Positions 10,761-64,000 of a stretch of 64,000 bases of DNA are shown here, piece by piece. Below the pieces are notes generated by a model that searched no databases, was not told the origin of the DNA, and worked only from the letters and a program-made list of their open reading frames with translations. The DNA comes from Antedon mediterranea (lineage: Eukaryota > Animalia > Echinodermata). The stretch spans positions 22,767,237-22,831,236 of the forward strand of contig NC_092672.1 in NCBI RefSeq assembly GCF_964355755.1. The letters run 5' to 3'. How positions within the stretch are numbered: position 1 is the stretch's first letter; each line of letters begins with the position of its first letter. A program made the translations under genes and the position numbers.

Positions 10761-10769
10761 TAATAATAA

Positions 10770-37846: not shown

Positions 37847-40800
37847 ATATTATTGGTGCCATCATATATCAACATCTTTATAGGCTATGTAGAATCTGTA
37901 GCAAAACTAGCATCGATATGGCTTTTACTTTTTCCAATACTATAAAATGAAAATAGAGAATATTTAATATTCTTAATGAATCACAGGATCAAGTGTAAAA
38001 TTGTATTCAGAGATTTATGGAAAATTATGGTTTCAATTAATGTTTACCCAATTTGTAATAATAACGCTATTAAACAAAATAGGGTGAAGTTTGAACAACT
38101 TAGTGTATAAGTCCTTTTTATACTGTATTCTAATTGATACTATTGTACCACGTCATAATGTTAGCAAACTCCCTGCTTTGTAGCCATACTACAGTTTTTT
38201 CATGAACATTTTCTGATTTTTGTAATACCAATATAAACATGGTCAATTTATTTCATCTAATAGAGATCAATGAAAAAATTAAATAGAGATCTAAAACAAC
38301 AGATGATCACATTTGTTGATTTTAAATTGTCTGCTTTACGGCATATTTAACTGTCTACTGACTGCATATTTAAACATTGATGATTGTTAGAATTCAAATT
38401 ATTCTGCACTCAGATCTTTAAATCACTGGTGCTTATACTTGTACATATACTTTACAGTGGAAACAGGATGCTAATTTGTCAACTTATATTATCTCTAAAA
38501 TACTTTGATAACAAGTAGTATATCAACACTGAAATATTATGAAGAGGGAAGCTTGAATCATTCCAAAATAGGGATAGGCTGCTGTGTAGTGTTCATATGA
38601 CATGTTCAGTTTTGAAATTCACTAGTAAATAATAAAACCTTACTTTCTGTCTATAATAGCATTACTCGTAATCATCATTAGCAAGTAAGGAGAAAAGAGG
38701 GACTTACACCTTCATTTTAAAATTAGTTTGTCATATATCTATATATATACAGCCATGAAAAATAGGAATACCAATACCCAAAAATACAACAAGATGGGAT
38801 TTGTAATTTAATGAATAGAGCACGCAAACAGACAGAAAACATTTTTGTTTTTGGTTATGCATTTTGTTTAATACAATTCAATACCCACATTCTGGATTTC
38901 TGTAGTACATTTATCTTTTCAGTTCATATTTTATGCATACAAAATTGAGAACCACCAATTCATCACCATTTCCACTTACATTAAAGCAATAATTAGTATT
39001 ATAGTATTTTGTTATGATGAACTATTATAATTTTATTTAAAGCAATTTCAGATAAAAGCTATGCATAGAAATCTTTTGAATTGCAATAAATAAACACATG
39101 ACCTTTTTCTACGACAATTAAAAAAAGCATTATAGTGAACAAAAACTATGATTGTATTGTTTTTCTTGAAAAATCAGTAGATCAGAAATATTTAAAAAAC
39201 AATGATTAAAATGAAGTTGCAACAATTTGAATATCATTTATTAGTAGGAATGTACAAAAGCCCTAAACTCATACTTACAGTGAGAGCTCACACATTTCAT
39301 TTTACATACACATGCACTTGAAAATGAAAGTTACACAATGATGACACATTATCTTCAAAACAAATGTAAATGTACTTTACATTAATTGTTTCTCCACTTA
39401 ACTGTTTTCATAGTCACATTATTATCATTTATATGGGACTGTTTTGTACTACAATACTTTATGCTGTTATCAAAATGACTTTATACTATACTGCAATATT
39501 TACATCGATCTTCCTTTCTGGTGAAGTAGACCCTATCATAGAGGCTTACACTATGTATATCAAGGTCTGCTCGCCCTAATTTGGCCAACATTTTCGGCCG
39601 CTATAAATGTATTGGCCACGAAACATTAATTACATTACTCAAAATTTGCGCCACCTTAATTCTGTAGTATTTGTCCATAGTATTTCAAGAACGAATTCTG
39701 CTCATTATAATATTTTTAATTCATTTCCACGTCTGTTCATAACTTGCCTCCAAATGTTAAAGATAGTCTAGTTTTTTCCCTTTCTTCATTTATATATTCA
39801 CTTAAGAAAAACTTGCCTCAAATACCTGTCTGAACTCAATGAAATGTGAAATGTTATTTTAAACTGTTTTTCTTTATTTAAGTTTATTTAATTTTTACAC
39901 TTTAGGGGTGTCATACTTTATTTCATCGTTCACACCAACAGTTGATTGAATGTAATGTTTAAATATTATCTACTCAACAAAAATATGTTCCATTTGTATA
40001 ATGTATAGTAATAAATTAATAAACCTTACATTATTCTTTCTTTGCGCATCTAAATACCTTATAAAGTATGAATACACATGTGGTTGATAACCACAATAAA
40101 ATAAAATATAGATAATTCTAATTGGTACACATACTGGCCCACATCTTTCTGTTTCACTACATCATACTGGTCCTGCCAGTTGAATCTATTTCTACAGAGC
40201 AATCTCACTATTTAAACAAATTCCGAAACTTATTTAAAAGGTGAGATTCTATGGTGTTTTCTGTCTGCAAATAACTTTCTGAATTCCAATAATTCAGACA
40301 ACAATGAATAAAAATATACAAGAAATAATTTTTACTGTAAAAAAAGACTTTCTGAGATAACAGTTTTAATTATTGTTCTTTCTTCATAAAATGATATTTT
40401 CTAAATTGATATTCTATTTAATAATTTAAGAAATAAAGATTTATTATCAATTATTTTTGTTTAAAAATCACAAACATTTCAGTGAACAAAAAATGTATAA
40501 TTTTCCATGAGCCTTCGTTGTACAGCAGCAGCCGACAAACATACACACTAATCAAACAATTGTCATCTATATACACCCCATTCGGCAAAAATATTTACCA
40601 TAGAGAAAGGATTGTTTTGACCATTATTCAATGATATGATGGTAATTATACTTGGCCTCTATGTTGACAGCCAAAACACAGTTATTGTTTATTGAACATA
40701 GGTCTTACAAACTTAATGTCTGCATACTGTACATATCTCAAAGACCCTCTGTGCACATGCCCAGTTTGAGTTTACAAATTCCCATTTAGACTTTCTTACC

Positions 40801-41723
40801 AGACGTGCTTTGGGGTGTGCTCATGCCCAGTTTGTGTTTCTAAATACCCATTTTTTCAGCCTCAGTAATCTATTATAAGCTTCTGCATGGCTAATGCTTC
40901 CGTTCTCTTGAATGTAACTGCCTAAAGGACTGGTGCGAAAATTATTATTTACTTTTGAAAATTAACTTTTTTATTTATTTTATTTACTGAAGTATATAAA
41001 ATGTTGATGGGATAAGCAATGATTATGGAACATACAGCACTTTATTTGTTTATTGGTATACTCCTGGTGAGCATGGTCTACTATGAAAGTTTTAGCCTCA
41101 GTGAATATTATTCACATCCTAATTCCTATACACAATATATTGAACTTTTTGTCTTCAATGTTCATCAAAATAATATATTAATATCAGATTATTTATTTTT
41201 GTTTTAAATTAGTTATATAGGATTTATATAATTTTTTATTAGATAATTGTTAGTTGCATTAAATTTGTTTGAAATGTCAGTATGTATACATATGAATAAA
41301 TAATGTTTATTATTTCTTTTATAATTACTGTATAATGTCTTTTTTCCAGTGATTGTTTTTGTTATATCTTTGAAATAAAAAGAATATAACATTTTTTTTG
41401 GTGTAAATTTTAATCATTTTAATAAGTCAATTCAATAAATATAAAACACTAATAATAAAGATGTTATAAAATCTATTAAAATGTATAAATTTTAATATTT
41501 TTTACATTGATATGATTTGCTTGGTTCTTGGTAGTATTCTGGCATCAGCCAAACCTTCACTCATTTTAAAGACAGGCTTGAGCTATCCAGGGAGGTATGA
41601 AAATGGTCATGGTATTTCTAAAAACTGTCCATTTGATCTAACAAATTTTAAAAATGAAAACATGTTTATACATATATCTGTTATGTGGTTCAAAAAGATG
41701 TCTACAATTAACTTGTTTATCTA

Positions 41724-41828
41724 TTTTAGTCGTGTGCAACGTGACTCTACAGCTCACTATGTTGGTCGGTCGGTAAACACTAACTCAAATTTGCGCACAC
41801 GACTGCAGCCATGTATATGGCCTTGTTT
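41724..41828 (+). mobile_element. About 105-bp mini-HINE, absent from copy B
   Basis: ttttagtcgtgtgc...gcacacgact subterminal IR plus gccat/atggc hairpin plus ttgttt; sits in a T-run. Confidence 0.7.
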
Positions 41829-41969
41829 TTTTATCAGATTAAACTCAACATTAATATTGTTACAATCAATATTTAGACTAATGTGTGTACGTCAAACCTC
41901 TTAAAACGGACAATGTTTTGTTGGTACACTAACAAATCTTTCTTTAGAATAGTGCAGGCCATTTACTCT

Positions 41970-43005
41970 AGGTCCAGAGAATTTGACTTCAGAAATTGGT
42001 TTAGGGTGGTCAAACAATCATTTTTGGCTTGGTTACACATTTTGAAAATGTGGCGAAAGGTCAAAAGGTCAGGTCAAAGGTTATAAGATCAAACAACATT
42101 ATGTCCTTAAATCTCGACAACCACTGGTCACAGCGAGGTAATTTTGGTCTCAAATTGATCAGAAGGTATACATTCATATTCAGTCTAATGAAACATTTTA
42201 GTCGAAAATGACCGGAAATGCCATTTCTGACCTTTGACCCATAAACCAGGGCATGTCTGTATCTCCGTAACTATTGGCCGTAGAGACTTGAATTTGGGCT
42301 CAAATTGTTCGAAATATACATTTAGTTATTTGTTATACACATTTTGAACAATGTTACAAAAGGTCAAAAGGTCAAGGCCAGGGGTTATATGAATTAACAC
42401 AAATAGGTATTTGTATCTCGGCAACCACTGGTCACAGCGAGTAAATTTTGGTCTCAAAATGTTCAGAAGGTATACATTCATATTCAGTCTAATGAAACAT
42501 TTTAGTAAAAAATGACCGGAAATGACATTTCTGACCTTTGACATACATACCAGGGCATCTTCTTATCTCTGTAAGTACAGGTCGTAGAAACTTAAATTTA
42601 GTATCAAATTGTTGGAAATACACATATTTACATTCATTCTAACAGAAAATTTGGATAAAAGATGATCATAAATACTATTAATTACTAATTTTTTAAATGA
42701 AAAACATATCTACCCAACTTATCATTAGACAGTAATGTTATGCAATAATTGATGCTTAATGATTTCATTATACTGTAGGAATTAAAACAAATCCTTTACT
42801 GTTTGTAATAATTGTACTTTTGCTTATAATAATGCTAGAAATTATTGTTGACCCCGAACGTTCAAACATTTTGAGAATGCTAGAAGTAATTTACTGTAGT
42901 TACCCGAATAAAAGCCTCGGGCATTTATTTATTCAGGGAAGGCGTTTATTTTGTTGGGTGTAATAATGGTAACATGTATAATCAAATAAATACACCCCAG
43001 ATATA
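41970..43005 (+). repeat. Left arm of an approximately 1-kb inverted repeat
   Basis: aggtccagagaatttgac...atggtaacatgtataatcaaataaatac is the reverse complement of 46475-47488. Confidence 0.9.
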
Positions 43006-44369
43006 TAAATAAAAAAATAAACCGCTATGGAGAGATTATCAGCATTAACTACTCAACGAAGAACGTCCCATTACCATCACAGAAGGACTATTTACAACGA
43101 CTTATCGAAAAAACCGAGCAATTTTTACGCAGAATGCGATGGAAGGCCCACTTCTTCCTTAATTCCAGTACCACCGCATCATCCAAGCAAACATTTGGCT
43201 TCAAGTCTACCAAAAACCCACCACCGATCGATGAACTATACGAATTTGAAGATGACATACTCCATCTGATACAATCGACAACATTCAAAAACGCAGAAAA
43301 CCCTCTACTCAACAAGTTAAAAACCGACTCCAAGAAAATTGAAAACGAGCCCAAACTTTTAATTGCAGCCGACAAAACCACAAATTTCTACAAACTAGAC
43401 CCACCGACGTATGACAACCTCCTAGAAGAAAACATCACCAAATCATACAAGAAAGCAGAACCTGCACTCGTACAGACGATTCATAGAAAAAACAAAAGTA
43501 TTGCAACAAAATTGAACATCGCTGACAGAGTGGATACAACTGCAAATAAAGATGCTTTCATAACCCTCAAAGACCACAAACCGAACTTCACTAACAAACC
43601 TACTTGCCGATTAATAAACCCGACCAAATCCGAGATAGGCAAGATAAGCAAAACTATACTCGATCGTATTAACAGCAAAATTACATCAAAACTTCGCACC
43701 AATCAATGGAAAAATACCTCATCGGTCATCGAATGGTTTAAGAGCATCGACAAGAAACAACAACACAACTTTATATGCTTCGACATCGTAGAATTTTACC
43801 CCTCTATCAGCAATGACCTGCTGAATAAAGCACTAGACTTCGCTAAAAGATACGATGATATTACCAACGACGAAAGAGACATCATCGTACATACCAAAAA
43901 ATCAGTACTATCACACAAACAGCAACCATGGCAAAAGAAAGGCCCACAGCATTCGATGTGACTATGGGTAGTTATGATGGCGCAGAAACATGTGAACTTG
44001 TTGGAAGCTTCCTGTTACACCAATTACAACAGAAACTAGGAATCAACATAGGACTTTACAGAGATGACGGCCTTGCAGTCACAGACACCACACCTAAAAG
44101 CACAGAAAATATTAAAAAAGACATATGCCAAATATTCAAAGATAACGGCCTACGCATTACCATAGAAGCAAACAAACAAGTCATCAACTTTTTAGACGTC
44201 ACACTCAACCTAGCGAAGAACACATACCAGCCCTACACCAAACCAAACGCCACGTTACAGTATATCCATCAACAAAGTAACCACCCACCGACCATCCTAA
44301 AGAATATACCCGCCGGGATAAACAGGCGACTCTCGTCCTTGTCATCCGACAAGAATTCATTCGACCAAG

Positions 44370-44681
44370 TGAGTGAGTGGCCGAGCGGTTAAGACAGTGG
44401 AACCGCAATTACGTAGCCATAAACATCGGCATAGGTTCGAGGCTCACTCACTCCATGGTTCTGGTGGTAGAACGAGTCTTCTCGGATAAGGACTATAAAC
44501 CGTAGGTCCAGTGTACACATCTAGCTCGTGTGCACTTTAAAGAACCTAGTACATCTTTCGAGACGAGTAGGGGGTTACCCCGGTGTATAGTACATCACAG
44601 CCACTGATCACCAACTGGGCCCTCTGGGAGACCAGTCTTTGACTGAAGAGGTTACGCAGTATAAATATATATTTCAATTCA
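44370..44681 (+). mobile_element. tRNA-headed SINE with a Deu/Nin-like central domain, inserted in the Penelope ORF
   Basis: A box TGGCCGAGCGG, B box GGTTCGAGGC; tcggataaggactataaaccgtaggtcc...gagtagggggttaccccggtgt; removing it restores SFDQ|AAPVYQ; short aag duplication. Confidence 0.88.
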
Positions 44682-45543
44682 AAGCCGCCCCTGTATACCA
44701 GAAAACTCTCAACGACAGTGGATACCAGTACACACTAAAATACGAGCCGGTAACCCAGACAAGACAGAAAAAACAGACAACGAAAAGACATTCTGTGGTA
44801 CAACCCACCGTTCAGCAAAAACGTCAGCACAAACATTGGACAGAAATTCCTATCCCTAGTAGACAAACATTTTCCAAAAGATAACAAACTAAGAAAAATC
44901 TTCAACCGAAACACTATCAAGATTAGCTACAGTTGTATGAACAATATGAAACAGATAATAGACAGTCACAACAAGAGAATACTCAACCAGCCCGAAACAA
45001 CATCCGTGGAAAACACGCAAGAAAACAAAACATGCAACTGCCGACAGAAAAACACATGCCCGCTAAACGGAAATTGCTTACAATCATCTGTAATATACCA
45101 AGCCACAGTTACACGCAAAGACAAATCCACCTCGGAAACTTATATCGGACTTACTGAAAATGATTTTAAAACACGATACAGAAATCACACCTCATCATTC
45201 CGTAATTCACGTTCTAGAAACTCAACAGAACTCAGTAAACATATTTGGACACTCAAGGACAATAACACAGACTATACAATCTCATGGCGCATCTTGACAT
45301 CTACTAAAGCATATAGTAGCGCAAACAAAAAATGCAATCTCTGCCTCAAAGAGAAATTATTTATCATCCGCCACCCTGAATTATCGACATTAAACAAACG
45401 TAACGAACTTGTGTCCGCCTGCCGGCACAGAAAGAAAGCATTGTTACATAACAGCTGACATTCCAAAACATATCACCTGTAAATGCTAATTCTACAAGTA
45501 AATGTGCTTATAAGCAGCGTTGTAATTGATTCTTCTCATTATA

Positions 45544-45592
45544 GTCTCCTGATGAGTGAGTTGCACGACTCATGAAACAAGCCTGTAGAGAC
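45544..45592 (+). ncRNA. Minimal type I hammerhead ribozyme in the Penelope pLTR
   Basis: Stem I gtctc/gagac, CUGAUGA, stem II gtgagt/actcat, GAAAC, short near-palindromic stem III caagcctg, GUA cleavage triplet. Confidence 0.88.
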
Positions 45593-46474
45593 CAAACTGT
45601 AGTTTTTACTTCTTTTCCAGACTTAACGTATAAAAAAAAAATATATATATAATAAGAATAATAACGGGATTAAACCTCATTCTATCCTGGAGGAAGTACA
45701 ATCATGTAATAAAAGGTATCGGAGACCACAATAATAGACCAAGTCATTGTCATTATTAGGTAACACTGTTGCATAATAGTTTTGAATGTCAACGACATAA
45801 CTTATACAATACACGTCTGTTCCCAGTGTAGATAATAAAACAATATATATTTCTGGAGATTTATTATCAATACCACTAGAAACTTTGACATGTTTTAGGT
45901 ACTGAATGCATTGACAATAAAAGCATCAGAAGTTTATCATGATAAAATCATACTACAACACTGTATTTACAATACACAAGGGTGTTTTCAGGAAAGCTGG
46001 ACATATTGTACAATAGTAATGAAACTATGTATTGGCATTTAAAACTATGCAAAAGATTGTTGTCAAATTGTAGAAACAAACAAATAGATGATAGAATGAA
46101 GATCCATTATGAGTGCAATCGTGTCAGGATAATGATGTGTCATTGTTTTATATCATTATACTGGCACCTGGAGGTGAAGATCCATTTAATGGAATCTATC
46201 ACTTTTATTTTATTTTAAAAGACAGAAACATTTCGTTAAAAAGCATAAAGAGGAAAACGAATCATGTAAAGTACCTTTTATCAGTTGAGAAACAAAATAC
46301 AATTATTAAAATTAGAGTATTCCTTAAAATAAACGCCACCATTCCCTCAAATAGAACACCATGTGGAATAAACGCCCCGTCACGTCAACACATTTCATTA
46401 ACTACCATAATCTACAATTTACCAAGCATTTTGACATAATTTTATCACTTTTTGATATTAATTGTGCAGTATTT

Positions 46475-47488
46475 TTTTACATCTAGGTGGTATTTATTTG
46501 ATTATACATGTTACCATATTATACCCCAAATAAAGATGCCTCCTTTCCCCCTAAAAACCATTTTGAACAATAAATGCCTGGGGCGTTTAATCGGATACAT
46601 ATGGCAAGTTACTTCTAGCATTCTGAAAAGAACTGTTGAGCTTAACGTTTCTATCAAAATGTCCTCGGGGACAGCAATAACTAGTACTTGAAATTAAAAC
46701 AATTTAAAGTATCAGTTATTGCATAACATTACTGTCTAAGGATAAGTTGTGTAGATATGTTTTTTGTTTGAAACATTAGTAAGAGTATTTCTGTTCATCT
46801 TTTAACCACATTTTCTATTACAATGAATGTAAATATGTATATTTCGAACAATTTGATACCAAATTTAAGTTTGTACGACCTGTACTTACAGAGATATAAA
46901 GATGCCCTGGTATGTGGGTCAAAGGTCAGAAATGGCATTTCTTATCATTTTTGACTAAAATGCCCCATTAGATGGAATATAAATGCATGCCTTCTGAACA
47001 TTTGAGACCAAAATTGACTTGCTGCGACCAGTGGTTGCCGAGATAAAAGTACCTTTTTTTATTTGTTCAAATAACCCTTGACCTTGATCCTTTGACCTTT
47101 TGTAACATTTTTCAAAATGTGTAACAAATAACAAAACATATATTTCGAACAATTTAAAACCAAATTCAAGTGTCTACGACCAGTAGTTACGGAGATATAT
47201 ACATGCCCTGGGTTGTGGGTCAAAGGTCATAAATGGCATTTCCGGTCATTTTTTACTAAAATGTCCCATTAGACTGAATATAAATGTATACCTTCTGATT
47301 AATTTAAGACCAAAATTACCTCGTTGTGACCAGTGGTTGTTGAGATTTAAGGACATATTTATGTTTGGTCTTATGACCTTTCACCTTGACCTTTTGACCT
47401 TTCGCCACATTTTCAAAATGTGTAACCAAGCCAAATATGATTGTTTGACCACCCTAAACCAATTTCTGATGTCAAATTCTCTGGACCT
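46475..47488 (-). repeat. Right arm of an approximately 1-kb inverted repeat
   Basis: Reverse complement of 41970-43005; ends gtcaaattctctggacct. Confidence 0.9.
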
Positions 47489-48076
47489 CAAAGTGCATAC
47501 GAAAGTTGATCTAGCTACTAGAGTATAAAATAATAGATTTTGCATTACATACAAAATAATATTCCATGTGCAAAGCTTCCAATTGAAATGAAAGTACCAA
47601 AGCAATCGATAAAATAGGATATGCTACACTCACAATAACTTGTACTAGCTAATGCCACCATCACACCATACGGCAATGAACTATTTCTTTGCTCTATGAT
47701 CGCACAAAGGATAATTTAAATATATTGAAGTTTTAAACATGCCCCTGAAAGTAAAAGTTTATACACCAAACCAATCCAGTAATTTAATATTTAAACAATA
47801 TTAAATTTAAAAAAAGTTAAATAATTTAAATACCAGGCAACAACATTTTTATGTAAAAACTGGAATAATAATAAAAATGTATACAAAAGTAGAAATAAAA
47901 TTTTAAAAAGCTAATTTGATAGTATTTGTGTGCATTGCGTATATGATCACACACACAGCAAATACAAGTTACAAATTGAATTTGAAAATTGACACTTAAT
48001 GGATGTTTAATTATATAAAATATTAATTAACCAATAAATATGTAAAAGATGTAACTTGTATGATTTTATATTTTAG

Positions 48077-48175
48077 GATGGACGCTCAGCTTTGCATTTG
48101 GCAGCTAGGACAGGTCACTCAGCCTGCTGTAACCTGCTGGTTGATGCAGGGTCAGACATCAATATCCAAGCCAGA
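48077..48175 (+). CDS. Gene 2 ankyrin-repeat exon C
   Basis: ttttAG|...|GTAAGT, 99 bp, phase 0; DGRSALHLAARTGHSACCNLLVDAGSDINIQAR. Confidence 0.93.
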
Positions 48176-48658
48176 GTAAGTTATACATTCTTTCATAGTC
48201 ATATTTTTTTATATTTTGTATTTTAAATATAATGATCTTTTGAGTAATAATATCTGCATGTTATAATGCTATTTAATGTTTTTATTTAACTGTATTGATG
48301 CTAGAATTGGCATTATTTGGAGTTTTTCAATATATTTTTTTCTCTGATATTTAGTTATAAAAATTGCTATGACACTATACATTTTGTCATGTTTAAACAT
48401 TTCCATTTAACTCTTTATAAAACAATGAAAACTACAGCAACATACTATTGAAATATAATCCTTATTCCAAAGTGTAGATATACAGTAATTAAATCGGAAT
48501 TATGTACACTTCTATTACACAAAACTTCAATTTTTTTTAGTTCATTTTCACAAAACTGTTTAATAACTTTTGAAACACTATGATTTTACCTATATATCAC
48601 ATAGAGGTACAAATGATCAAAGATGCTAGTTGATAGACATATAGACTGTATTCATTTA

Positions 48659-49220
48659 TTACCTCCGCCAAGGAGGTTATGTTTTCACCCCTGTATGTTT
48701 GTGTGTGTCTGTGAACAGCCTGGAGGCCACAGTTTTTATCCGATTCTAACCAAATTTGGACACAATGCTCTATGCCCAAAAAGCTCGGAGGAGTTTGAAT
48801 TTGAGAGGGAAAGGTCATAGGTCAAGGTCACAACTAACAAAAAACTATTTTACTGCCTAGAGACCACAGTTTTGATCCGATTCTCACCAAACTTAGCCAC
48901 AATGATCAATGACACATCATATAATTGTGGTTCAATTTTGAAGGGTCAGGGTCAAAGATCAAGGTCCACAAAAAAAAAAAAATAAATAAATAAAAAAATA
49001 AAAAAAAAAAAAAAACCTCAGTGGGGCTTGAACCAGCGATCTCAACTGTGAGAGGCTGGATACATAACCATTACACCACACTGTCATTCACAACTTTGTA
49101 GTGTGCAGTTAACATATTAACTAATAAAAAAAAATGTTTAAAAAAAAATATTCAGGGGGAATTTTATGTAGGGGAATTTTACAGTAGGCGGAGGTTTGTA
49201 CTCTCGGAGTACCTTTAGTT
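48659..49220 (+). mobile_element. HINE (non-autonomous Helentron) carrying a degenerate antisense tRNA-like segment (49015-49086)
   Basis: ttacctccgccaaggagg 5' end, GT microsatellite, 3' ggcggaggt IR plus gtactc-tcg-gagtac hairpin plus tagtt. Confidence 0.85.
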
Positions 49221-49573
49221 TTATAATTATTATCATACTCATTTGCCATACTCTTTATTCCTTTCAACAACATCACCACCAATCCCAAGAATGATGATGC
49301 AGAATTTGGTTGAGAGCTAAAGTGATCTTTTAATACACACCACGATTATAGTTCTTTGTTATTAGGTTGTAATTATTTTTTCCATATACAATATAAGATA
49401 CAGATAGTATATCTGCCACATTCATTCTTTCTTTACCGTACCTAGTTTTTAACAAATCACCTTACATAATAATTACAGTATCAAACCACTATTACAATGT
49501 CATACAAAATGTAACAAGAAATATTTCTTACAAAAAACGCTGCGTAACTTTTTGACTGGACAGTCTTCATTAA

Positions 49574-51455: not shown

Positions 51456-51799
51456 GGCCCATACACTAGGACGATAACGATCGACGATAAATAGACAAAT
51501 GTGCATTTTTAATACATAAACCAAAAGAAATATAAACAATTCCTTTGATGAAAATTATATTTTCACACGTCCAATCAAATGACGTCATGATTAGTAAGAC
51601 CAATAATATCGTGACAATACAGCGATTTTATTGTTTTTATTTGATTGGAATTTGAAAAACATTATTTTTATCAAAGAAAGCATAAATGATTATCCTATAG
51701 GTCTAGAACGAAAACCTTTCTAATTTCTTTTGGTTTATGTAAAAAAAATGAATGCTATATATTTATCGTCCGTCGTTATCATCATAGTGTAATTGGGCC
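51456..51799. mobile_element. Fully palindromic MITE (Harbinger-like)
   Basis: ggcccatacactaggacgataacga / cgttatcatcatagtgtaattgggcc; inner cataaaccaaaagaaa / tttcttttggtttatg. Confidence 0.8.
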
Positions 51800-52596
51800 T
51801 TTATACAAAAAAAAATAAATTGATTACGAAATTACATGTCATTTTCACCTATCACCAAAAAACTAACCTTTTCAACACTAATTAATTGTTACGAAGCCAA
51901 TTTATATTATATATTTCATTAAAACTGAACTTTACGGTAAATGAAGAGTAAGTATCAGTTAATATGAATAATATAACTAGTAGGTCTATGAAGTTGCGTC
52001 CAGACACAGAACTGTGACATTACTATCATAAATGTTGAAACCACTTATAAAACCTTTTTTTAAAGAAAATATAATTGTGTTAGGAGAAGGCTAATAAACA
52101 AATAGATAATGTACAAACCTTTTCCTGGATTAATTAATGGAGCAGGCGTTCCTAATAATCTGCTGCTGCTACCTAGACTGATTGTTCACCTTCTGACGAT
52201 AATTGATTGGACCCCCCCCCCCACCCCCCACGGCATCTGATAACCAAAACAAAAAAATTTACCAGGACTGTTTCAATGATTTAATATCTGACGGCGTATT
52301 ATTATAACATTGGTTATGATTATTTGACAGTGATTTATTATAATACCGGCCTGGTTGACAGCAAAAACGAAGTTATTATTTATTGAACAAGATTTTACAG
52401 ATTTCCGTCTACATCTCAATAATAGAGAGTTTACGAAACACGACGGGAGCTTAGACAACGAGCGATTGACAGTGATAGCCACGCCCACTGGCGACACTGC
52501 GCCTGCGTAAGTAATTTCACCAGTTGTCGTCTAGTAGCAGACAACTGCAAAATTGCTGTTTTGCAGTTCACAGTGCACGAAAAAAAAATACAAACA

Positions 52597-53782
52597 ATGA
52601 CTTCTCAATTAGCTGCCCAAAGTATGTATATTTGGTTATGTTTATATTTAAAATGATCATCAATTAAATAATGGGATCCTAAATAATGTTTGCATCGATT
52701 TCTGATTTATGACCTAATTTAATAATAGATAAAGTTATCACTTAAAATAAAGTGCCATTTGCTGCCTAAAAAAGTAGGCTAGAAAGAATAGGCCGCAGGT
52801 TGGCGCACCTAGGCTAGGCCTAATAGCTATTACTATCTAAGCTTAGGCTACTACTAGGCCTAACTAAACTACGGCCTATTCTATGCCTAGTCCTCCTACA
52901 TATACTAAGTCACTAACTAGGCCTAGCTAGGCTGGGAAGGCCCTCTATTTTTTTACCTCCTATTCATATTGCCACGCTGTGTAGGTAGGCCAGGCCTATA
53001 ATAGGCCTAGGGCCTAGGCCTAGCTAGGCTAGACCTAGGCCTAATTGTTTTTTTTTAAATATAGGTAGGCCTAGGCTAGGCCTATATATTTTTGTGGCAA
53101 TCCAAGTTGAATGTTTAGCCTGGCTAGCATTAGACTAGGCCTAGCCTCTAATGGTAGGCCACCTACCTAGGTTGCCTACTACTGGCCCTAGCCTAGGCTA
53201 GGCCTAGTTAGTAGTATAGTACTAGCTATATGCTAGTAGGCTCGAGCAAGACACACAAATTTAGCTTTTGGCGCAACCCATCCTACTTCTAGAGACTAGC
53301 TAGGTCATACCAGTCATTTTTCATCCAGACCTGTCTACATTGGTTTACCTAGATTTGGTTTGAGGCCTAGCCTATAATATACTGAGCTATAACAACATCA
53401 ATGACAGAATACTTTTATTCTGTAGTGTTATTGATTGATATTATACATACATTTTTTATCCTATTTTAGCAAAAAAAATATCTCCAACTAAGAAGTGGTC
53501 TCCAGAAAAAGATGACCAGTTAGTGAAGGAAATGATACATTGGATCCTTTCCAGTACAGAGAAAGAAGGCAGCAACATGGAAAAGTATGGAAAGACATTG
53601 CAGGCAATCTTTCACCATCTTTCGACTTTAACTTAGATGGAAGAAATGTAAGGGATAGATGGAATCTATTAAAGGACAAGTTGAGGGCAAAATTGAATAA
53701 TGAGATAAGAGGGTCTGGTATCGCTCCATCAGCATTATCAGAAACAGAAGCTGCAATAGAAGATTTGCTAAGTCAGGAGTAA
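52597..53782 (+). pseudogene. Myb/SANT-like DNA-binding gene of the transposon (exons 52597-52621 and 53470-about 53780), frameshifted
   Basis: MTSQLAAQ|TKKISPTKKWSPEKDDQLVKEMI, then a 1-bp shift to LDPFQY...VWKDIAGNL...VRDRWNLL...GSG. Confidence 0.75.
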
Positions 53783-54250
53783 AATGCCTTAAACATAAGA
53801 TCAGAGAGTGGTGATGCAGCCACAGCACGAGCTGCAGGTGAAGAGGTCGTGAGGTGGTTTCCCGAATGATCGTAAAATCAAAACGGTACTGGGTATGACC
53901 AACTAGCGTTATTGTCACCGACTAGTCATCCATTCATATAAGTACTGATGTAGTAGCCTACCTGTACGGTGACCATATAATGTGACCCGAGGCATGACTA
54001 ACTACGACTTTTAGTTGATAGAAGATTGAAAAAATTGTTAATAAGAGTTGTACTGTATGTGGATGTTTAATGAAATTATGTCAATAATGTTTACACACTA
54101 GGCATATAAATAGGGATAAGAAATTGTATTTTTAGGTTTCTTCTATAGCCCTCTCTGTTTTTGATAAAGGTGGTCTCCCATCTAACTTAAAACCATTAAA
54201 AGATTACTTGCTGAGTCCTTTAAAGTGTATATACTGTATAAGGTAATTAA

Positions 54251-54540
54251 TAATTGTGCAATATTAAAAACAATGCAATATCAACAACTTTTAAAGTAAA
54301 CATGCTTATGTATTCTGTAGTAACATTAATATATTTTAATGTTCAATATAAAGTTTAAACAGTTGAGTTCATAATATATTTTAACAAATTGAATACACTG
54401 TATTACACACGGTACAATATTAATTGTGCAATATTAAAAACAATGCAATATCAACAACTTTTAAAGTAAATATGCTTATGTATTCTGTAGTAACATTAAT
54501 ATATTTTAACGTTCAATATAAAGTTTAAACAGTTGAGTTT
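54251..54540. repeat. Tandem duplication (period 170 bp) inside the transposon
   Basis: taattgtgcaatattaaaaacaatgc...cagttgagtt at 54251 and 54421. Confidence 0.9.
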
Positions 54541-54712
54541 ATTTACAGTACTACTATAAATAAAATTGCCCTGAGACTTTACAGTATACCTAACTTACGT
54601 GTATCAATCTGATTGTATAAATATGATCCAATGTATTACTGTATTAAAATTATTAACTTTTAAAAAGGTGTAAAATGATTTATTTTATAATTACTTGTAT
54701 TGCCTGTATAAT

Positions 54713-56083
54713 TTATCGGAAATATTCCTCAAGGGCAGGCGGATCTAATTTAAAGGTTTTGGATGTAATGTTGCCATAAAGACACGTGTGAGCATTTGTT
54801 AACAGACAACAAACTACATAGATCTTCCCAATTGCACTTAAGCCTATTTTTTGGGTTTTCTTGAAGTCCACAAATTTCCAATTTTCTATGATATCTCTGA
54901 ATAGCCATTCAACAGACACCCTAGCCTGGCTCATGGATCTGTTAAAATCCTGTTGACCTTGTGTCAAGTTTCCTTTAAAAGGAGCCTGTAAATGGACACG
55001 AAGGGGATAAGCCGGGTCTCCATAAATGCAGAGAGGATCTCCATTTAGCCGTACGGCATAACGTTCTAACTGTTGTAATAAGTTGGATTCTCTTAACATG
55101 AAGGCATCATGGCGACATCCCTCTATTGGTCCGAACAGGTTTGCGATTAGTCCATTTGGCGTGACAACTGACTGAAATTTTAATGAATGTACACGCTTAT
55201 GGCCATTATATACAATTCTTTGGTGTTCACCAGGCCTACAAATTGGACGCACCGTCCCATCCACGAACCCCCAACAATTGTCAATCGCAGCACCAGAATC
55301 ATAGATTGCAGCAGCAAAACGTTCCATATTGCCAGGTGATAGCCAAGGCTGTCGAAAACAATTGCTAAACAGATGCTCGAATCCGTTATATATGTAATTC
55401 AGAGCCATATTCGTTATCATGCAGAGTTGGGGAATGGGCCTGGCAAACATTGGCACCATATCAATGTACCTGCATGGATATGCAAACCTTTTCAGCAAAA
55501 TGCACAAAGTTTCGATGCCAGTAACTTTAAGACCGTTAACACATTTAACATCATCCTCTATCTGTAGAGCTCTCTGCAGTCGATAAATGTCTTCTTTTCG
55601 AAATCTTTAAATAAAATTGAAAGCATGTGTTGTAACTAAACTAAGTTGAATACCTAGCCTAGCCCTAGTAGTATAAATAAGTAGCCTATATTGGCTATAA
55701 ATCATGAATAGGCCTAGGCCTATAATAATATTAAAAATACTGTATTATAGACAGACCAACAATTTATTAAATCAACTTGGTGACAATAAATTAGCCAAAA
55801 AGATTAGCTCATAATTATGCCAGACAATACTACTTTCTCTAAAGCCTACCCTACTGTCTAACTAAGTCTTAGTAATATGATGAATGATTGGCTTGTGGGT
55901 GACTTATCCCCGGACTTACCTGAAAAACGTATTACATTCGTCGTCATTGTAAGATTCCAGATTAAATTTATTGTAATCATTGTACTGAACATTTAAATTA
56001 TTTCTTTTATTAAGATTATATAAAAGCAAATATTCCTCAGGGTCAATTATATCTTCATTTAATGCATCTTGTACGAAAGCCAT
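54713..56083 (-). CDS. Harbinger-type DDE transposase, 351 aa, two exons (56083-55920 and 55604-54713)
   Basis: MAFVQDAL...ECNTFFR|FRKEDIYRL...LLKRFAYPCR; AG|GTAAGT donor, taaAG acceptor; GFVDGTVRPI, YNGHKRVHSLKFQ, YGDPAY, SVEWLF; no stop codons. Confidence 0.9.
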
Positions 56084-59000
56084 GATGATTGTTTACAAAC
56101 ATATCAAGCCGAGCGTGACGCGACGTCGTCGTCCCATCGCGTATCGTAAACGAACTTTTTAAAGTGGACGACAACCAGCTTTTCACGCATCAGCGCGCAC
56201 TGGTAATCCGTCGTCGTCCCTCTCCGTCGTGTTTCGTAAACTCTCTAATACTGTATTATCAGCAAAGGCTTTCATATAGACTCTCTTCTCCCAGACGTTT
56301 TTTGGGTCCAGCAGCTACCTATAAATTATAGTCGAGTTTCCAAATTCACAAAACTGTCAGCCTTAGATACTAAAGCTACCGCTATGAAACAGCTTATTAA
56401 TGAATGTGTCCTCCTGGGACATAGCTGGCTAGAGCCGCGGCGCGAAAATAAACAAATCATCATTAGCATGGTGATGATTGATCCATAGCAATATTTTTAG
56501 TCTATTTAAAAAAATGTTTATTTCTTAAAATTTATTTAGATATACATACACACATAGTAAATTATAGTAAACAAAAAATAAATGGAAATTGTTTAACACT
56601 AAACAACCTACATTAGAGGTGAAATTATACCACTAAGAAACACAAGAAAGCTGAACTTAGACTTATGTTCTACACAACTGTAACAAGTTCAGAGTGTATC
56701 CAGCATTTAACATTATGACATATTTTAGACCACTGACAATGGTGATCACCAGTGCTTCGCAAAGTCTGCAGTTGTACTTTATATCATGTTTTATTCATTC
56801 ATATTTATCTCCATCATCCAACTTTATCAAACAAAACTTTTTTGAGAATAAACATACAGTAGCTATATGTAAGGTTCAACTTTAATAATTTTAAAAAGTT
56901 TAACATTTTCTAACATTAATGTTAAAATATTACTTTTAAAAGAACTTATTATTATAATTTCAATTTTCAGTACAAGCTATTTAACATTTTTTTTTAAATA
57001 TATGCCAAGTTATTGTAGCATAACTTTATATTTTAATCAATGGATGTAAATGACTTTGCATTATATAAATGTATTACAATTGTTTATAAACTCTTCATTG
57101 TTGTAGATTCTATTTCAGTACAACCTTTTTTTAAAACTAATATTGACCTTGGTTCATCCTTGTTTCAGTGTGATGGTCCTACCTTTTCAATAGAATTACA
57201 TTCATGTTCACAGAGTAAATTAAGATTTATCTCCTTTAAAATTAAATTCAATAAAACTATATCCCATAACAATTTTCCTTTGAATAAATAGATGGAATTA
57301 TTCGTAGTTTATTGATTTGATTCAGACCAATTTCATACACATTTAGCAATATTTTTTTCATTTTTTAACTAATAATATGCATAGAAAATGTTTATTTTAC
57401 AACTACAATACCTCATTAAGTAATTCATTTATTTACTTTTTTATGGCTTTAACTAGTTGAATTCTCTCATGGTACCAATATAAAGTCTTAATCGGCAATA
57501 AATTTCTATTAATCATACATTCTAATAATTTTAATATGTTTCATAATTTTTTGGATTTTATTGTGTTACAATAAAGGAAAAATAAACGGTGTGGGAAAAA
57601 ACATTATCAGATGACTAAATATATGTAATATAACGTTTTAATACATTTCTGGTGTTTTTGTGCAACTTCAAATTTTTATTTTTGTGCTATAGTTTAGTAG
57701 TAAACTAAATTTATCTTCCCATTTCCACCCTTTAAGACAGAATAGTCCAACTTCCCTTTCCCTGTAGTAGAGCACCATATCTTATTTTAATAATTTTTAC
57801 GGTTAATTTTTATTTTCTATGAAAGACAAGAGAAATAAATGTTACTTTGATTTGATTTGATTTGATTTGAAGAATGTTAAATAACAGACAAGGGACATAA
57901 AATTGCTTGTCTACATACACTTTATTCACAGTACACATATGGCTGAATGCACATAACAACATTACTATAAGCCCAACAACTGGGAAACCTTTAACACGTG
58001 GCTTACCTTTCATCGGTCATGCTTTTTAACAACCTACCTTAAACCCCTGCGTTAGCGGCTAATGTAACACCAACCCAGCGAATGCTATGCAGTCCAAATA
58101 GATATTTATTGTACCCACATCTTCGTAAAATATCCTTAACAGCGTGAATAGGACATCTTTCTAGCATGTGGCTACTAGTTTATTTCACTGACTAAATAGT
58201 GCTATTGTGGTTCCATGCCTTAGTACTCTCTATATCAGCATGTATAAAGACCCAGGTATCTGTCTCCAACAATAATGTCCAACCACCAATAGTTCTTGAT
58301 AGTTCAAACCCTGAATTATTTAATATTTTAAATAAACTAAAATTTACACTATGTAGTATTTTTGTAAAAAAAATAATAAAATATGCACTAAATGTTGATT
58401 TTTCTTTTACCTAAACCTTGTATTATTTTAGGTAAATACAGAATTTCATTTACAGTATTGTGGTACAAAACTATGGTACAATCAAGTCCTTCTGTTTCTG
58501 AATTATTTCTTGTAACGTTAAATCTTTGATTAGTTTTACACCTTTTCACCTTCTGTCAATTATCAATTATTTAAGAATTACTGACATTCAGTGACTGAAG
58601 TTTCTCCTTCATCTAATGTTCAAGCAGTATTGTTATAATGTTTTTTTTATTGAGAATTGTCCTATAATTTCACACATAAATTAATTATTCCCTGAGATTT
58701 GAAATCAAAATAAAATGTACATTGACTTATTTAATAATTGCCCTGATTTAATGCACAACTATTAATTTAGATTGTATACTGGCTTTTTCTTTTTATCCAA
58801 ATGTACATATGAAAAACATAAGCACTCATTTTGAGGGCTTGTGATGAGTTTAAAATCAAATAACAATATTATCAAGTTAAAGTTCAAAACAATTTTTTTT
58901 GTAATGGTCAAATGAATACAAAACAGAAAATATATTTAGGTAACATTAATTTGTTTAAAAAGTAGCATGAAAATATAAAATAAATTACAGGAATAAAGGT

Positions 59001-61055
59001 AATAACTATACAGGAACCAAAACTTAAAATAAATAAATAAAATCAACAGAAATATAGACAATAGCATATTATTTTATCAGAAAAGTAGTTGGAGAGATAA
59101 TGATTTTCAATTATTATATAAAAGTTTTTCTGATTAGAAACAATGGTTAAATCAAGACTATTCCACTTGTATTTGGGTTAAAACATCAATTTTTTGGTTA
59201 AAATAATTGCCAAATTCTGCAATCCTCCAAAAAACATAGCAAAACTCATTTAAAAAATAATTGCTAAACCTTTCACCCTCGGATTAGAGGGGGCGTAATT
59301 ACCAGCCCAAACAATATTACAGTACTGTGTCAATCAATGAATTCTACTACAAATAGAAATATGTTGTAAATGCAATATTGTGGGCATGCAATGCATGGTG
59401 GTGGGACATTTACTCAAGGAAATAGTAGGAGGAGGGGGAGGGTTGTTTAATCCAAATGATTTTTCATGAGGGAGTTTATTCGTGGGGGATTATTCAAAAG
59501 AGGGTGTTTAATCAAATTGTCATCTATGTACCCAACCAGGTCCTCATCTCTGAAACCTATCAGCACCACAACCACACAGGTTCAGTACATTTTCTAGTAA
59601 AACGACCCAGCGAATTGGCATTTGATATGGAACACAATCTAAAATGTTTGTCACCGAAGTTGAGCTTGAGTGACAGTCGATACTGAAACACACGTGGAAT
59701 TTGATTTAGTGATTTGAATAAAATAAATTTAATTAATTTCAAACAATGACAATTTATTTAATTTATTTAAAAATTGATATTAAAATATAAAGCATTTTTC
59801 ATTTAATCTGGGGATGGCAATGGGGTAAAAAATAAATAATAATTTAAATATAAGCTAGTAAAATAGTTTGTTTAGCAGAATTGCTATTGAAGTTTACTCA
59901 AGTTCTGCTGTTACCACTATTACATTCTTGAATGATTAATTAACACCAAACATGTTGAGTGCTTTCTGCCTTTTTAGCTTGCATACATGTTGCCATTTAG
60001 GTTAATATCAGGTGAATAGTGGCACCACCTGCAGTTGATTAAATGTATCAGTTAAATGTTCTTGATTATAATTTCCAGGGGATAGACCTATAATCATTGA
60101 TACAACTGAAGTATCTTAACCCTTATCTATCTTATCTAGTTTGTTAACTCTTCTCAAAATGAATTAACAAGGTTCTTCTAGATAGTGTAGTGTTTTTTTC
60201 GTTTGTTTTTTTGATAATTTTAGGTCTTGAAATTTAAAAATGAATATTTGGTTGAAAGAAATGAAAAAATGATGAAAATGAGAGCCTCTGTTTAGGCTGT
60301 ACACTTTTATGTATTTAACAGTATAGCTGTAAAACTAAATTTTCATGATAAATGGTTTATTACATTTTATAGACTATTATGGCTAGTATGGCAGCTATTA
60401 ATTATATAAACAGTTTAGTTTTCTAGTAATACCAAACATGTTGGATAATCATTTGACTAATATCAAAAAAAGTTTATTGTTTAATAATATTATGCTTTTA
60501 TAAATAATCATAGTTTTACTAAATAAAATACCAAAAAGTAATTAATTTATTATTTAAAGTATTTATTATTCTAATACACAACAAATTAGTTTTGCTTATT
60601 ATTAGTCTGTGAATCTTTTTAGTTTCTTTGTAAAAATAGTTATTTCTTGTTTATATTGTTTTAAAAGTATTTGTACTAAAAAAATATTAGTTTAATATGT
60701 AGTATTTTTAATGATTTAATTAACACAGTAGGCTGTGAATCATTTTAGTTGTATGCCTAATTACTGTAATAATATCACAAATTGTTCAATATTATCTTAT
60801 AGTTTAAAAAGTATACTAAAATTTAAGAAATTAAGACTCTTTGTACACATTTTGTAGATCATTGATTTTTTATACCATTGCCACCGCATTTTCGTTCTTT
60901 GAAATACCCATGTTTATACTGTTATATACATTAATATTTTTCTTTTTTAGTAAGTGCCCTCTATGTTTTGATATTTTCCAAAAATGTTATAGTGCATGCT
61001 ATTAGTGTGGACATACTATCATAAAACCTCAATATTTCATTTGTTCAAGTTGAGA

Positions 61056-64000
61056 TGTCATACTTTAATTCATCGTTCACATCAGCAGTTGGTTGAATGT
61101 AATGTTTAAATATTATCTACTCAACAAAAATATGTTCCATTTGTATAATGTACAGTAAGCATTAATAAACTTTACATTATTTTTTCTTTGCGTATCTAAA
61201 TACCCTATAAAGTATGAATACACATGTGGTTGATAACCATAATAAAATAAAATATAGATAAATTGGCCAGACAAATTGGTACGCATACTGGCCCACATCT
61301 TTCTGTTTCACTACATTATACTGGTACTGCCAGTAACTGCTGCTGCTAATAACTTGATCAATTCCAATAATTCAGACAACAATGAATACAAAAAAAAATT
61401 TCTTTTACCATAAAAAAGACTTTCTGAGATAACAGTTTTAATTATTGTTCTTTCTTCATTAAATGATATTTTCTAAATTGATATTCTATTTAATAATTTA
61501 AGAAATAAAGATTTATTATCAATTATTTTTGTTTAAAAATCAGTTGTAAACATTTTGTGTAACATAAATATAGTTTGAATTACTATAGACAATAGTACTA
61601 TGCATATTCTGAGTGGCATTACTCCCTAAGGTTGGAGTGACCCACTCATACCCACAAACATTTCAGTGAACAAAACATATATAATTTTCCATGAGCCTTC
61701 ATCGTACAACAGCCGCCGACAAACGTACTCACTAATCAAACAATTCCTCATCTATACACACCCCATTCGGCAAAAATATTTGAACATTATTGGTATACCT
61801 GATAGTATTATACTCGACCTCTACGTTGAAAGCTGCATAGATATCTCATAGACTCTCTGTGTACATACTCAGTTTGAGTTTACAAATTATCATTTAGAAT
61901 TATCATCCCAGACTTGCTTTGAGGTATCCACATGCCCAGTCCATGGAGGTAAAAAATATTTTTTTTTTTACCTCCATTTCTTCTCCATGTTTCCAAATAC
62001 ACATTTTTCAGCCTTAGTAAACATTAAACATTTTTTTCCGCCTTAGTAAAAACTATAAGCTTTCCCATGGTAAATGTTTCCCAATACTTTCGTCCTTTTG
62101 AATATAACTGCCTAAAGGTGTGGCGCGAAAATTATTGTTTACTTTTTGAAAATTAACTTTTTCATTTATTTCATTTACTGAAGTATAAAAAATGATGATG
62201 GGATAAGCATATAATTATGGAACATACAGCACTTTATTTGTTTATTGGTATACTCCTGGTGAGCATGGTCTACTATGAAAGTTTTAGCCTCAGTGAATAT
62301 TATTCACATCCTATACACAATGTATATCATTCCACTGTTTGTATTCAGTGTTCATTAAAATAATATATTAATATTTATTAGCTTGTTATAAAATCATTAG
62401 TTGTAGGATTTATATAGATACTTTTTAGTTCAATCTGTTTTAAATGTCGGTATATATACATGTGAATAAATAATGTTTATTTCTTTGTTATAATTACTGT
62501 ATAATGATTTATTTCCAGTGATTTTTTTTATATCTTTGAATTAAAAAGAATAACAATTTTTATGAATTTGTTTTAATATAAATTTTATTAATTTTTTGTA
62601 AGTCAATTCAATAAGTATATAATATAACACAAATAATAAAGATCTTAAATTCTATTAAACTGTATAAATGTTAAGTTTGCATTTCTTATGTACTGTATTG
62701 ATTTTCAGATTCAATATTTTTCACATTGATATGATTTGTCACCCATTTTTATTCTCTGACAGGCTTGAGCTATCCAGGGAGGTATAAAAATGGTCATGGT
62801 GTTTCTATAACCTGTCCATTTGATCTAACAACTTTAAAAAATGAAACAAATATGGTTCAAAAAGATGTCTACAATTAAATTGTCCATCTTCTTTTTTATC
62901 AGTTTCAATTCAAGATTAACATTGTTACAATCAATATTTAGACTAATATGCTACACTTGCTAGAACTTGCTAAACTCAACCACCACACCATAGAGCAATG
63001 AACTATTTCTTTGCTCAATTAACATAATGAAGTTACTTAAACATGCCCCTGAAAGTAAAAGTTTGTATGCCAAACCTTAGATAATTTAATATTTAAAAAA
63101 ATTTATATAAATAAAACTAAAATGTGATTGATAATTTAAATACCAGCAACAACATTTTGACATTAAAATTGAAATAATACAAAATTGTATAAAAGTATAT
63201 AACATAATTATCATATTAATAAAAAATTGTATACAAAAGTAGAAATCAAATTCAGAAAACTAATTTGACTTGGTTCATTGCGTATGATTATGCAGTAAAT
63301 AGTTGCAAATTGATTTTTGTAAAGTAACCCTCTGTATAAATTACATAACAAATGAATATGTGTACTGTAAGATATAACCAATATTGTATGTATTTCATAT
63401 TATAGAATGGTTCGACAGCTTTGCATTATGCAGCAGCCTCTGGAGAAACAGACTGTTGCAGCCTGCTGGTGAATGCAGGAGCAGGTGTCAATGTATCAAA
63501 CAAAGTAAGTCATCTTCATTATTATTCATTGTCATTTTTAAATATATAACATTTTATATTTTAAACATAATGATATTTTGGGTAATAATATTTAATGTAT
63601 AAAACTTCATTGATGCTGAAATTGGCATAATTTGAAGTTATTCAATATATTTTTTTTTTTATATTTAGTCATAAAAATTGCTATGACACTACATTAACAT
63701 TTTGTCATGTATTTCCATTGAACAATTAAAACAATGAAAATGATAGTGTCAATTTTACTTAACTAAACTACAGCAACATTCTATATGCACAATTGCAATA
63801 TATCATCCTTATTCCAGTGTTGATATACAGTAATTTAAACAGTATTATGAACACTACAACTTCACAAAATTTCAATTTTTCTTTAGATCATTATGATTTT
63901 GTATATCTTAAAAGTTCATTTTTTAACAATATTTTTTAATAACTTTTGAAACACTATGATTCTACCTATATATCACATAGAGGTACAAATGATCAAAGAT
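61056..64000 (+). repeat. Segmental duplicate copy B (runs past the window end)
   Basis: Colinear with 39909-41882 plus 47619-48624; the last 64 nt match 48561-48624 at 63 of 64 positions. Confidence 0.93.
63406..63504 (+). CDS. Gene 2 ankyrin-repeat exon D
   Basis: tatAG|...|GTAAGT, 99 bp, phase 0; NGSTALHYAAASGETDCCSLLVNAGAGVNVSNK. Confidence 0.93.

Follow-up and report, generated by a model that had tools for sequence, protein, structure and literature searches.

The window analyzed here is a 64,000-nt (64-kb) stretch of the Antedon mediterranea genome. It carries four ankyrin exons, A to D, whose upstream neighbor is a crinoid Roc-COR-death gene. Each exon encodes one Pfam Ank repeat, with scores of 29.7–37.9 bits; we took a 33-residue repeat scoring above the family cut-off (21.1 bits) as defining membership in PF00023. 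A six-frame HMM search of the whole window gave four strong ankyrin matches, all on the plus strand, with the next match at E 0.33, and neither strand of the window held an inverted or inactivated copy of an ankyrin exon. Splice sites and ankyrin framework are intact in exons C and D (Table 1). A weak half-repeat ankyrin candidate lies at 19804–19878.

Table 1. Ankyrin exons and the intron segments of cassettes C and D (window positions).
Feature	Position	Strand	Remarks
Ankyrin exon A	22334..22432	+	99 nt, phase 0; probably same gene; flanks unrelated to B, C, D
Ankyrin exon B	29553..29651	+	99 nt, phase 0; probably same gene; flanks unrelated to A, C, D
Distal upstream intron, cassette C	39885..41882	+	homologous to 61033–62947; left end of shared block
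Insertion, C only	41883..47618	.	5.7 kb; TAAT site, AT doubled
Proximal upstream intron, cassette C	47619..48076	+	homologous to 62946–63405; divergence shoulder adjoining exon
Ankyrin exon C	48077..48175	+	99 nt, phase 0, AG/GTAAGT boundaries
Downstream intron, cassette C	48176..48624	+	homologous to 63505–64000; match still continuing at window end
Upstream intron, cassette D	61033..63405	+	two dispersed-repeat fragments, ~61420–61627 and ~62044–62147
Ankyrin exon D	63406..63504	+	99 nt, phase 0, AG/GTAAGT boundaries; joined to own upstream flank in contigs of runs X5, X9
Downstream intron, cassette D	63505..64000	+	cut by window end

Exons C and D occupy equivalent positions in colinear blocks (39885–41882 with 61033–62947, then 47619–48624 with 62946–64000). 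The shared block is at least 2.9 kb long, and its two copies, starting at 39885 and 61033 on the plus strand, are nearby duplicates in the same orientation. This confirms the multi-kilobase colinearity described in the earlier note, with the qualification that C's block is split by the 5.7-kb insertion. The insertion carries inverted repeats of about 1 kb (41970–43009 and 46474–47488, 81%), with broken reverse-transcriptase frames at 42990–45458 between them; their RVT_1 match (E 0.0014) is below the cut-off. These frames may be Penelope-like.

The similarity between the C and D flanks is far above chance (z 42 and 66, 200 shuffles). The 10 remaining comparisons between exon pairs showed none (z −1.0 to 0.7). 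The flanks are not a common transposable element, an alternative that the earlier note had itself raised, except in two short segments, the only ones with high contig depth; the most identical 100-nt stretch of the flanks (99/100) falls within a high-depth dispersed repeat. Conservation of the introns for function was rejected as unlikely, given their many indels, their repeat fragments, and differences of 5–10% from another organism sampled (hereafter organism C). A search of metagenome contigs for a 26-nt motif common to the two cassettes gave 0 matches.

Whole-flank divergence between C and D ranged from 251/2454 to 319/2449 (10–13%), with 63–103 gap events, over four pairwise settings. When MAFFT was run with stiff gaps, the figure rose to 418/2460 (17%). 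The earlier intron counts of 5/100 and 1/64 could be repeated, but they describe the best patches. The exons differ at 36/99 nt and share 15/33 residues, exactly as counted before. This 36% exceeds the flank values even in the least favorable (MAFFT) alignment (Fisher P 6e-6), and a proper alignment leaves divergence non-uniform across exon and flanks.

A shoulder of divergence adjoins the exon: the 150 nt before it differ at 16–25% (43% under MAFFT) and the 150 nt after it at 13–17%. Farther away the flanks become less diverged (Spearman rho −0.05 to −0.08, P 0.011 to 5e-5), but a distal patch 1.2–1.6 kb upstream is equally diverged at 13–16%. The decay of identity reported within about 150 bp of the exon does exist, but it is modest and varies with the alignment.

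C and D are the closest pair among the four exons, with 36 differences versus 44–51 for the other pairs. For their 33 codons, dN is 0.44 and dS 0.67 (dN/dS ~0.66), compared with a JC distance of ~0.11–0.19 in the flanks. We again found synonymous change in 7 of the 15 conserved codons, whereas 1.75–2.17 would be expected at the G/C-corrected flank rate (P 0.0007–0.003). Silent changes were more frequent directly before a first-position change (5/6) than elsewhere (2/9; Fisher P 0.04, in a post hoc test), a clustering that is missing in the five other exon pairs, which served as controls. All of these exon-level statistics come from one pair of 99-nt exons. Since synonymous change in the exons is above the flank rate and lies beside amino-acid changes, exons C and D look older than their introns, and the earlier view of them as older lineages than their flanks is borne out by the synonymous excess. 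A dS above the flank rate together with a dN/dS of ~0.66 means that selection on amino acids alone is insufficient to account for the exon peak.

Intron conversion with selection on the exons is the best single explanation of the C/D pattern. The full history that we tentatively favor, with slightly less than even confidence, is that an exon-plus-intron cassette was duplicated long ago, that its introns then underwent conversion as selection held the two repeats apart, and that conversion has now largely stopped. Gene conversion would have kept copying intron sequence between the two cassettes, and tracts overwriting the exon would have been rejected by selection; this is likely why the introns are about 3-fold less diverged than the exons. 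Exons C and D would be spliced into one ankyrin array, in which neighboring repeats may require different surfaces. Conversion would have largely ceased, because indels and the 5.7-kb insertion have accumulated and flank divergence exceeds that seen in sampled relatives. The process itself is a known one; here it would probably have acted within a single repeat-protein gene. The earlier note had proposed both gene conversion through the introns under exon selection and a swapping or multiplying of cassettes. The former is retained as the best explanation and the latter is unsupported. Its description of the flanks as recently homogenised conflicts with their 10–13% divergence, 63–103 indels and insertion, and with the closer match of the D flank to organism C contigs than to cassette C.

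Contigs from other samples bear on how recent any conversion could be. Run X5, whose contigs extend into introns, was handled as DNA. Exon D was joined to the D flank in this second sample and in organism C (run X9); these short contigs show exon–flank joins, with cassette order and number outside their reach. Organism C contigs differ from the D flank of the window at 54/758 positions (7% pooled over four records whose cassette identity is not certain), and the C and D flanks, at 10–13%, are not closer to each other as paralogues than to this putative orthologue. Paralogous introns more alike than orthologous ones would be the direct sign of conversion. At variant sites listed with an aligned C base, other samples show the C base in 25 of 26 cases, and it was seen at 7/7 such sites on clearly D-type contigs. 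Agreement between window C and window D, the pattern left by recent conversion, occurred at 1/26. This comparison covers 33 of the 40 rows listed, with 270 more rows beyond those.

It is unlikely that a single duplication without conversion produced the pattern, with positive selection driving fast exon divergence and multi-nucleotide changes dragging silent sites along. This is how snake-venom PLA2 is described (PMC7285919): introns are far more conserved than coding sequence, all codon positions change, and KA approaches or exceeds KS. Cassettes C and D also have introns more conserved than the exon, exon differences spread over all three codon positions (13/9/14), clustered mismatches (18 runs, P 0.02) and no trace of recent conversion. 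However, dN is smaller than dS here, unlike the KA/KS relation of PLA2, and fast divergence leaves the intronic shoulder unexplained. All 6 variable-surface positions differ between C and D, accounting for 12/18 nt there versus 24/81 nt elsewhere, but the five other exon pairs differ at 4–6 of the 6 as well. Since these control pairs differ there too, the surface difference is generic to ankyrin repeats, and we rejected the enrichment as proof of positive selection.

The rates across samples, which are per-contig totals, are divided on this point. In X5, a flank-plus-exon contig has 14/325 differences versus 5.9–9.7 expected (P 0.003–0.12), an excess by which the exon could be fast within species. 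In contrast, the organism C contig, which covers 95 nt of exon D together with 276 nt of flank, shows 25/371 differences, fitting the uniform-rate expectation of 26.4 at the pooled flank rate. Constant acceleration at that rate predicts 36–46 differences (P 0.0005–0.04); at the lowest flank rate, P is 0.13–0.62, which makes this cross-species limit a loose one.

We consider it very unlikely that, after the duplication, one exon was overwritten by a different ankyrin exon through one or a few short conversions with exon-only homology. The peak of divergence is indeed sharp and nearly confined to the exon, and summed contig depth over exon D is 3–4 times that of the upstream bin in X3 and X5, where depth is no copy number. 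The D contig of X5 is unbranched, so the extra depth comes from other contigs lying on exon D. Organism C has no such extra cover on the exon, and overwriting does not predict the intronic shoulder. Of the four exons, moreover, C and D remain most closely related to one another, which rules out A and B as donors. Contig depth was rejected as a measure of copy number because D-like records within X3 alone span ~700 to 3200; C-like contigs in that run reach ~7100 versus ~3100 for D-like ones, about twice as much.

The probability is also small that C and D are long-balanced alleles of one exon, their flanks kept alike by allelic recombination, which unequal crossing-over placed in tandem. Balanced alleles would produce the same peak, shoulder and silent-site excess, and flank divergence would then simply give the age of the duplication. 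No conversion would have followed, in agreement with the variant-site pattern. However, an allelic divergence of 36% would need very old balancing selection, and no single-cassette haplotype was seen among depth ratios too noisy to reveal one.

Least probable of the four is an active Ectocarpus-like system, with cassettes gained, lost or swapped via conserved introns, or alternatively spliced, to vary the ankyrin array of an immune receptor: one repeat per phase-0 exon permits any order or skipping, the neighboring gene belongs to an expanded family, extra contigs lie on exon D, the X5 excess is possible, and the window ends inside cassette D, so further cassettes may follow, but only 2 of the 4 exons share flanks (those of A and B match no other exon's), inverted or dead ankyrin exons were found on neither strand of the 64 kb, the C/D flanks bear the indels and the insertion, exon D stays with its own flank in X5 and X9, and neither a link to a Roc-COR exon nor RNA support was obtained. 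Active shuffling is not supported. The earlier analogy to Ectocarpus "with conserved introns" does not hold for the section of the source that describes the ROCO LRR exons, which has reshuffled, inverted and dead exons instead (PMC3341825); brown-algal ROCO LRR exon shuffling is also treated in PMC11378527. The likeness, as far as these sections go, is one repeat per same-phase exon and a ROCO gene next to the ankyrin exons. The crinoid window differs in having one related cassette pair, without inverted or inactivated copies or traced reshuffling, and any link of its ankyrin exons to Roc-COR is putative.

The preferred reading, intron conversion with selection on the exons, has closer parallels. 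Introns more conserved than exons are well known in animals, as in opsins, RH, frog ATP1A1 and snake PLA2. Primate red/green opsin and RHD/RHCE are presented in PMC3924837 as cases of a divergence peak held by selection under gene conversion. They too are tandem same-strand duplicates with introns more alike than the exon and a peak on one exon, and the fall of C/D divergence with distance from the exon resembles the opsin peak. The unit differs, being probably a single-repeat exon cassette inside one gene rather than a whole gene. Because the C/D flanks are 10–13% diverged and no closer than those of sampled relatives, conversion is not ongoing, unlike in opsin/RH. The R and S paralogues of Leptodactylus ATP1A1 are described as keeping old synonymous differences beside maintained amino-acid differences (bioRxiv 10.1101/2020.08.04.234435), and C/D silent changes likewise sit right beside amino-acid changes. 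That account covers many species, tested residues and 12 sites, whereas here there is one pair, a P of 0.04, and a whole exon that has diverged. Spider MaSp2 and Flag also have intragenic exon–intron repeat units with similar introns, but these introns are given as 94–99.7% identical, with exons homogenised alongside (PMC9779670), versus 87–90% for introns and 64% for exons in the single C/D pair. The C/D pair works like concerted evolution with a divergence peak kept by selection, without being an ongoing member of that class; as the evidence stands, it is a fossil left by a known process. Our literature search, with subscription papers and supplements outside its scope, found no ankyrin case of introns outconserving exons and no crinoid one, and the article sections it covered held no discussion of echinoderm ROCO proteins.

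The pair bears on how repeat proteins gain repeats without erasure or homogenisation of the new copies. If the C/D exon is older than the surrounding introns, dating the duplication by intron identity would give a wrong age, and exon identity would conceal that it took place. Should the exons prove to front a ROCO gene of crinoids and differ from one individual to another, animals would have a counterpart to the candidate immune receptors of brown algae. It is a long shot that crinoids possess an expanded family of ankyrin-Roc-COR-death sensors whose binding surface is built from one-repeat cassettes duplicated, exchanged or alternatively spliced via shared introns, each repeat being kept distinct by selection, with C/D as the first visible pair. 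Such a family would give an animal a DARPin-like library of natural origin, in convergence with the ROCO LRR shuffling of brown algae.

The protein carrying exons A–D was not found in profile, Roc-COR or representatives searches. The exon-profile search gave 5415 matches among 7982 candidates, which were generic ankyrin proteins, with no orthologue among the best 120 listed. The representatives search gave 212 matches; 5 of 146 newly fetched from the 150 listed were ankyrin-like, none of them close (the best identity to any protein fetched was 64%). Matches in the ESM Atlas were all generic ankyrin clusters. The neighboring gene belongs to an expanded Roc-COR family: 24 proteins were found in the Roc-COR search, 15 from A. 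mediterranea and 3 from Anneissia, one of these three being an ankyrin-Roc protein. The ankyrin exons may encode the leading part of a crinoid ankyrin-Roc-COR-death protein. One of the 24 proteins carries Pfam ankyrin repeats, and the ankyrin-Roc protein of Anneissia has 39% identity to exon C.

Scanning the window for exons bounded by AG...GTRAG and searching it in six frames with HMMs recovered four exons, A to D, each 99 nt long, in phase 0 and encoding a single ankyrin repeat. The six-frame search of the window yielded no strong fifth ankyrin exon (next match, E 0.33). Ankyrin genes commonly have single-repeat exons, and from strand, phase and spacing we infer that A–D belong to one gene. 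The matches listed in the protein and sequencing-run searches included no protein or transcript record for them. Ahead of exon A, a candidate half-ankyrin exon with a good acceptor and a weak donor (GTATAC) shows similarity to exon B's second half; it may represent an N-cap exon or a decayed copy, or have arisen by chance. The donor sites after 22432, 29651, 48175 and 63504 read GTAAGTCAT at three of the four exon ends and GTAAGTTAT at the other, and the common sequence possibly survives from older duplications of cassettes with introns that can no longer be aligned.

Features of the window, by position
Feature	Position	Strand	Evidence
The five final exons of a gene with two death domains at its end	45-3831	+	protein matches
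Minisatellite run	3927-18763
Candidate half-ankyrin exon, 75 nt	19804-19878	+	HMM E 0.54
Exon A	starts 22334	+	scan + HMM
Exon B	starts 29553	+	scan + HMM
Exon C	starts 48077	+	scan + HMM
Exon D	starts 63406	+	scan + HMM
Insertion in the C block, 5.7 kb	41883-47618
Transposase open frame, 297 codons	54713-55606	-	DDE_Tnp_4, E 5e-26

An earlier note had described exons C and D as strongly diverged within well-conserved introns. This observation is confirmed, with smaller effect sizes. The exons differ at 36/99 nt with 15/33 residues in common, and silent changes occur in 7 of those 15 codons, exactly as counted there. The colinear blocks extend from 39885/61033 through 48624/64000, the right end being the window end, and the insertion interrupts the C block. 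Flank similarity is confined to the C/D pair (z 42 and 66; −1.0 to 0.7 in ten other comparisons). The intron patches singled out previously (5/100 mismatches at 39911 vs 61058 and 1/64 at 48561 vs 63937) were reproduced but overstate identity: over ~2450 aligned columns, four pairwise settings gave flank mismatches of 10.2, 10.3, 11.7 and 13.0% (103, 87, 73 and 63 gap events, respectively), and a stiff-gap MAFFT alignment gave 17%. Exon divergence was far higher than flank divergence in every alignment (worst P 6e-6). In the 150 nt upstream of the exon, divergence was 16-25% (43% in MAFFT, where this near flank was indistinguishable from the exon, P 0.46), and in the 150 nt downstream it was 13-17%. 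Divergence does fall with distance, but only weakly (rho −0.05 to −0.08) and not smoothly, because divergence is as high as 13-16% in a patch 1.2-1.6 kb upstream.

The insertion is a composite, with ~1-kb inverted repeats containing 300-nt tandem units on either side of a frameshifted reverse-transcriptase element; its site is TAAT, with AT doubled.

We tentatively favor an old cassette duplication in which the introns were converted and selection protected the exon. The duplicated unit comprises an exon together with 2.9 kb or more of intron, and the event would be ancient. Conversion likely maintained intron similarity, and tracts covering the exon would have been purged, leaving a shouldered divergence peak in which long-standing silent differences lie beside amino-acid differences; conversion would since have largely stopped. 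Between exons C and D, dS is 0.67 and dN 0.44. Mismatch rates from the flanks, split by base, predict 1.75-2.17 silent changes in the shared codons, against the 7 seen (P 0.0007-0.003). A silent change directly preceded a first-position change in 5/6 cases versus 2/9 otherwise (P 0.04, post hoc), a clustering absent in the five other exon pairs, our controls. C and D also differ at 6/6 variable-surface positions, as defined by the ankyrin consensus in the available part of PMC4308713; because 4-6 of the 6 also differ in control pairs, we rejected this as evidence for positive selection.

Parts of the D block were found in ten sequencing runs from five studies, and four runs were examined. One contig from organism C (63130-63500) and one from run X5, a second sample of organism A (63144-63468), span flank and exon; therefore, exon D remains joined to the D flank in each. 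Their per-contig totals are 25 and 14 differences from the window. Fast exon evolution without conversion, as available text on venom PLA2 describes (PMC7285919), is unlikely. The X5 contig does exceed the uniform expectation of 5.9-9.7 (P 0.003-0.12), the opposite direction to the organism C contig. For the latter, the pooled flank rate (54/758, four records) predicts 26.4 differences if uniform and 36-46 under constant exon acceleration (P 0.0005-0.04); at the lowest flank rate, acceleration predicts 24-32 and is compatible with the 25 seen (P 0.13-0.62). Replacement of the exon alone from a donor is distinctly unlikely, and old balanced alleles joined in tandem are improbable.

Among 40 variant rows listed (270 further rows lie beyond these), 33 fall within the shared block and were checked. 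Of these, 25 had the C base, 7 a C gap, and in 1 window C equaled window D. Many rows derive from C-like contigs; clearly D-like contigs had the C base in 7/7 rows. No recent C-to-D conversion in the window's lineage was visible in those 33 rows. The flank is low-copy apart from two short segments, which are high-depth repeats with numerous loose ends. At 62739-62741, runs X3, X5 and X6 carry ~34 additional, C-block-like letters; this stretch was apparently deleted from D in the window alone. At exon D (63396-63499), contig depth summed to 3-4x that of the upstream bin in X3 and X5, and not in X9 (organism C), which hints at additional D-like exons elsewhere in organism A.

Selection-limited conversion of this kind is described, in the available portions of the sources, for opsins and RH (PMC3924837) and frog ATP1A1 (bioRxiv 10.1101/2020.08.04.234435), and the C/D pair works alike. 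However, because in the sampled organisms its intron paralogues are not closer to each other than orthologues are, we regard it as a variant and not an ongoing member of selection-limited concerted evolution. In spider silk, by contrast, introns are far more homogenized and exons are homogenized too (PMC9779670, in part). Brown-algal ROCO genes share the one-repeat exons, but the window lacks the inverted and dead exons and the traced reshuffling that the available parts of PMC3341825 and PMC11378527 report. The interpretation in the earlier note is supported in part, its cassette-swapping side lacking these features, and active shuffling or a splicing repertoire is the least credible alternative. 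Our searches of mainly openly available literature turned up no paper on ankyrin exons with this pattern and none on crinoid ROCO genes. A crinoid receptor library of ankyrin-cassette ROCO type seems very doubtful.

The window has the composition of an AT-rich animal contig. The gene at its left end belongs to the Roc-COR-death family, and its five exons reach per-exon identities of up to 95-98% to A. mediterranea proteins, which marks the source animal as a crinoid near Antedon. Its death-domain exons (2665-2928 and 3574-3831) are duplicates of each other, 70% identical. The family is expanded in Antedon (15/24 matches in a Roc-COR search), with variable ends: kinase, DED, ankyrin-like or doubled Roc-COR. 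The very homogeneous minisatellites separating this gene from exon A have units of 112, 85, 39, 54, 60 and 99 nt (90-98% matches), and the transposase frame lies within the C–D intron.
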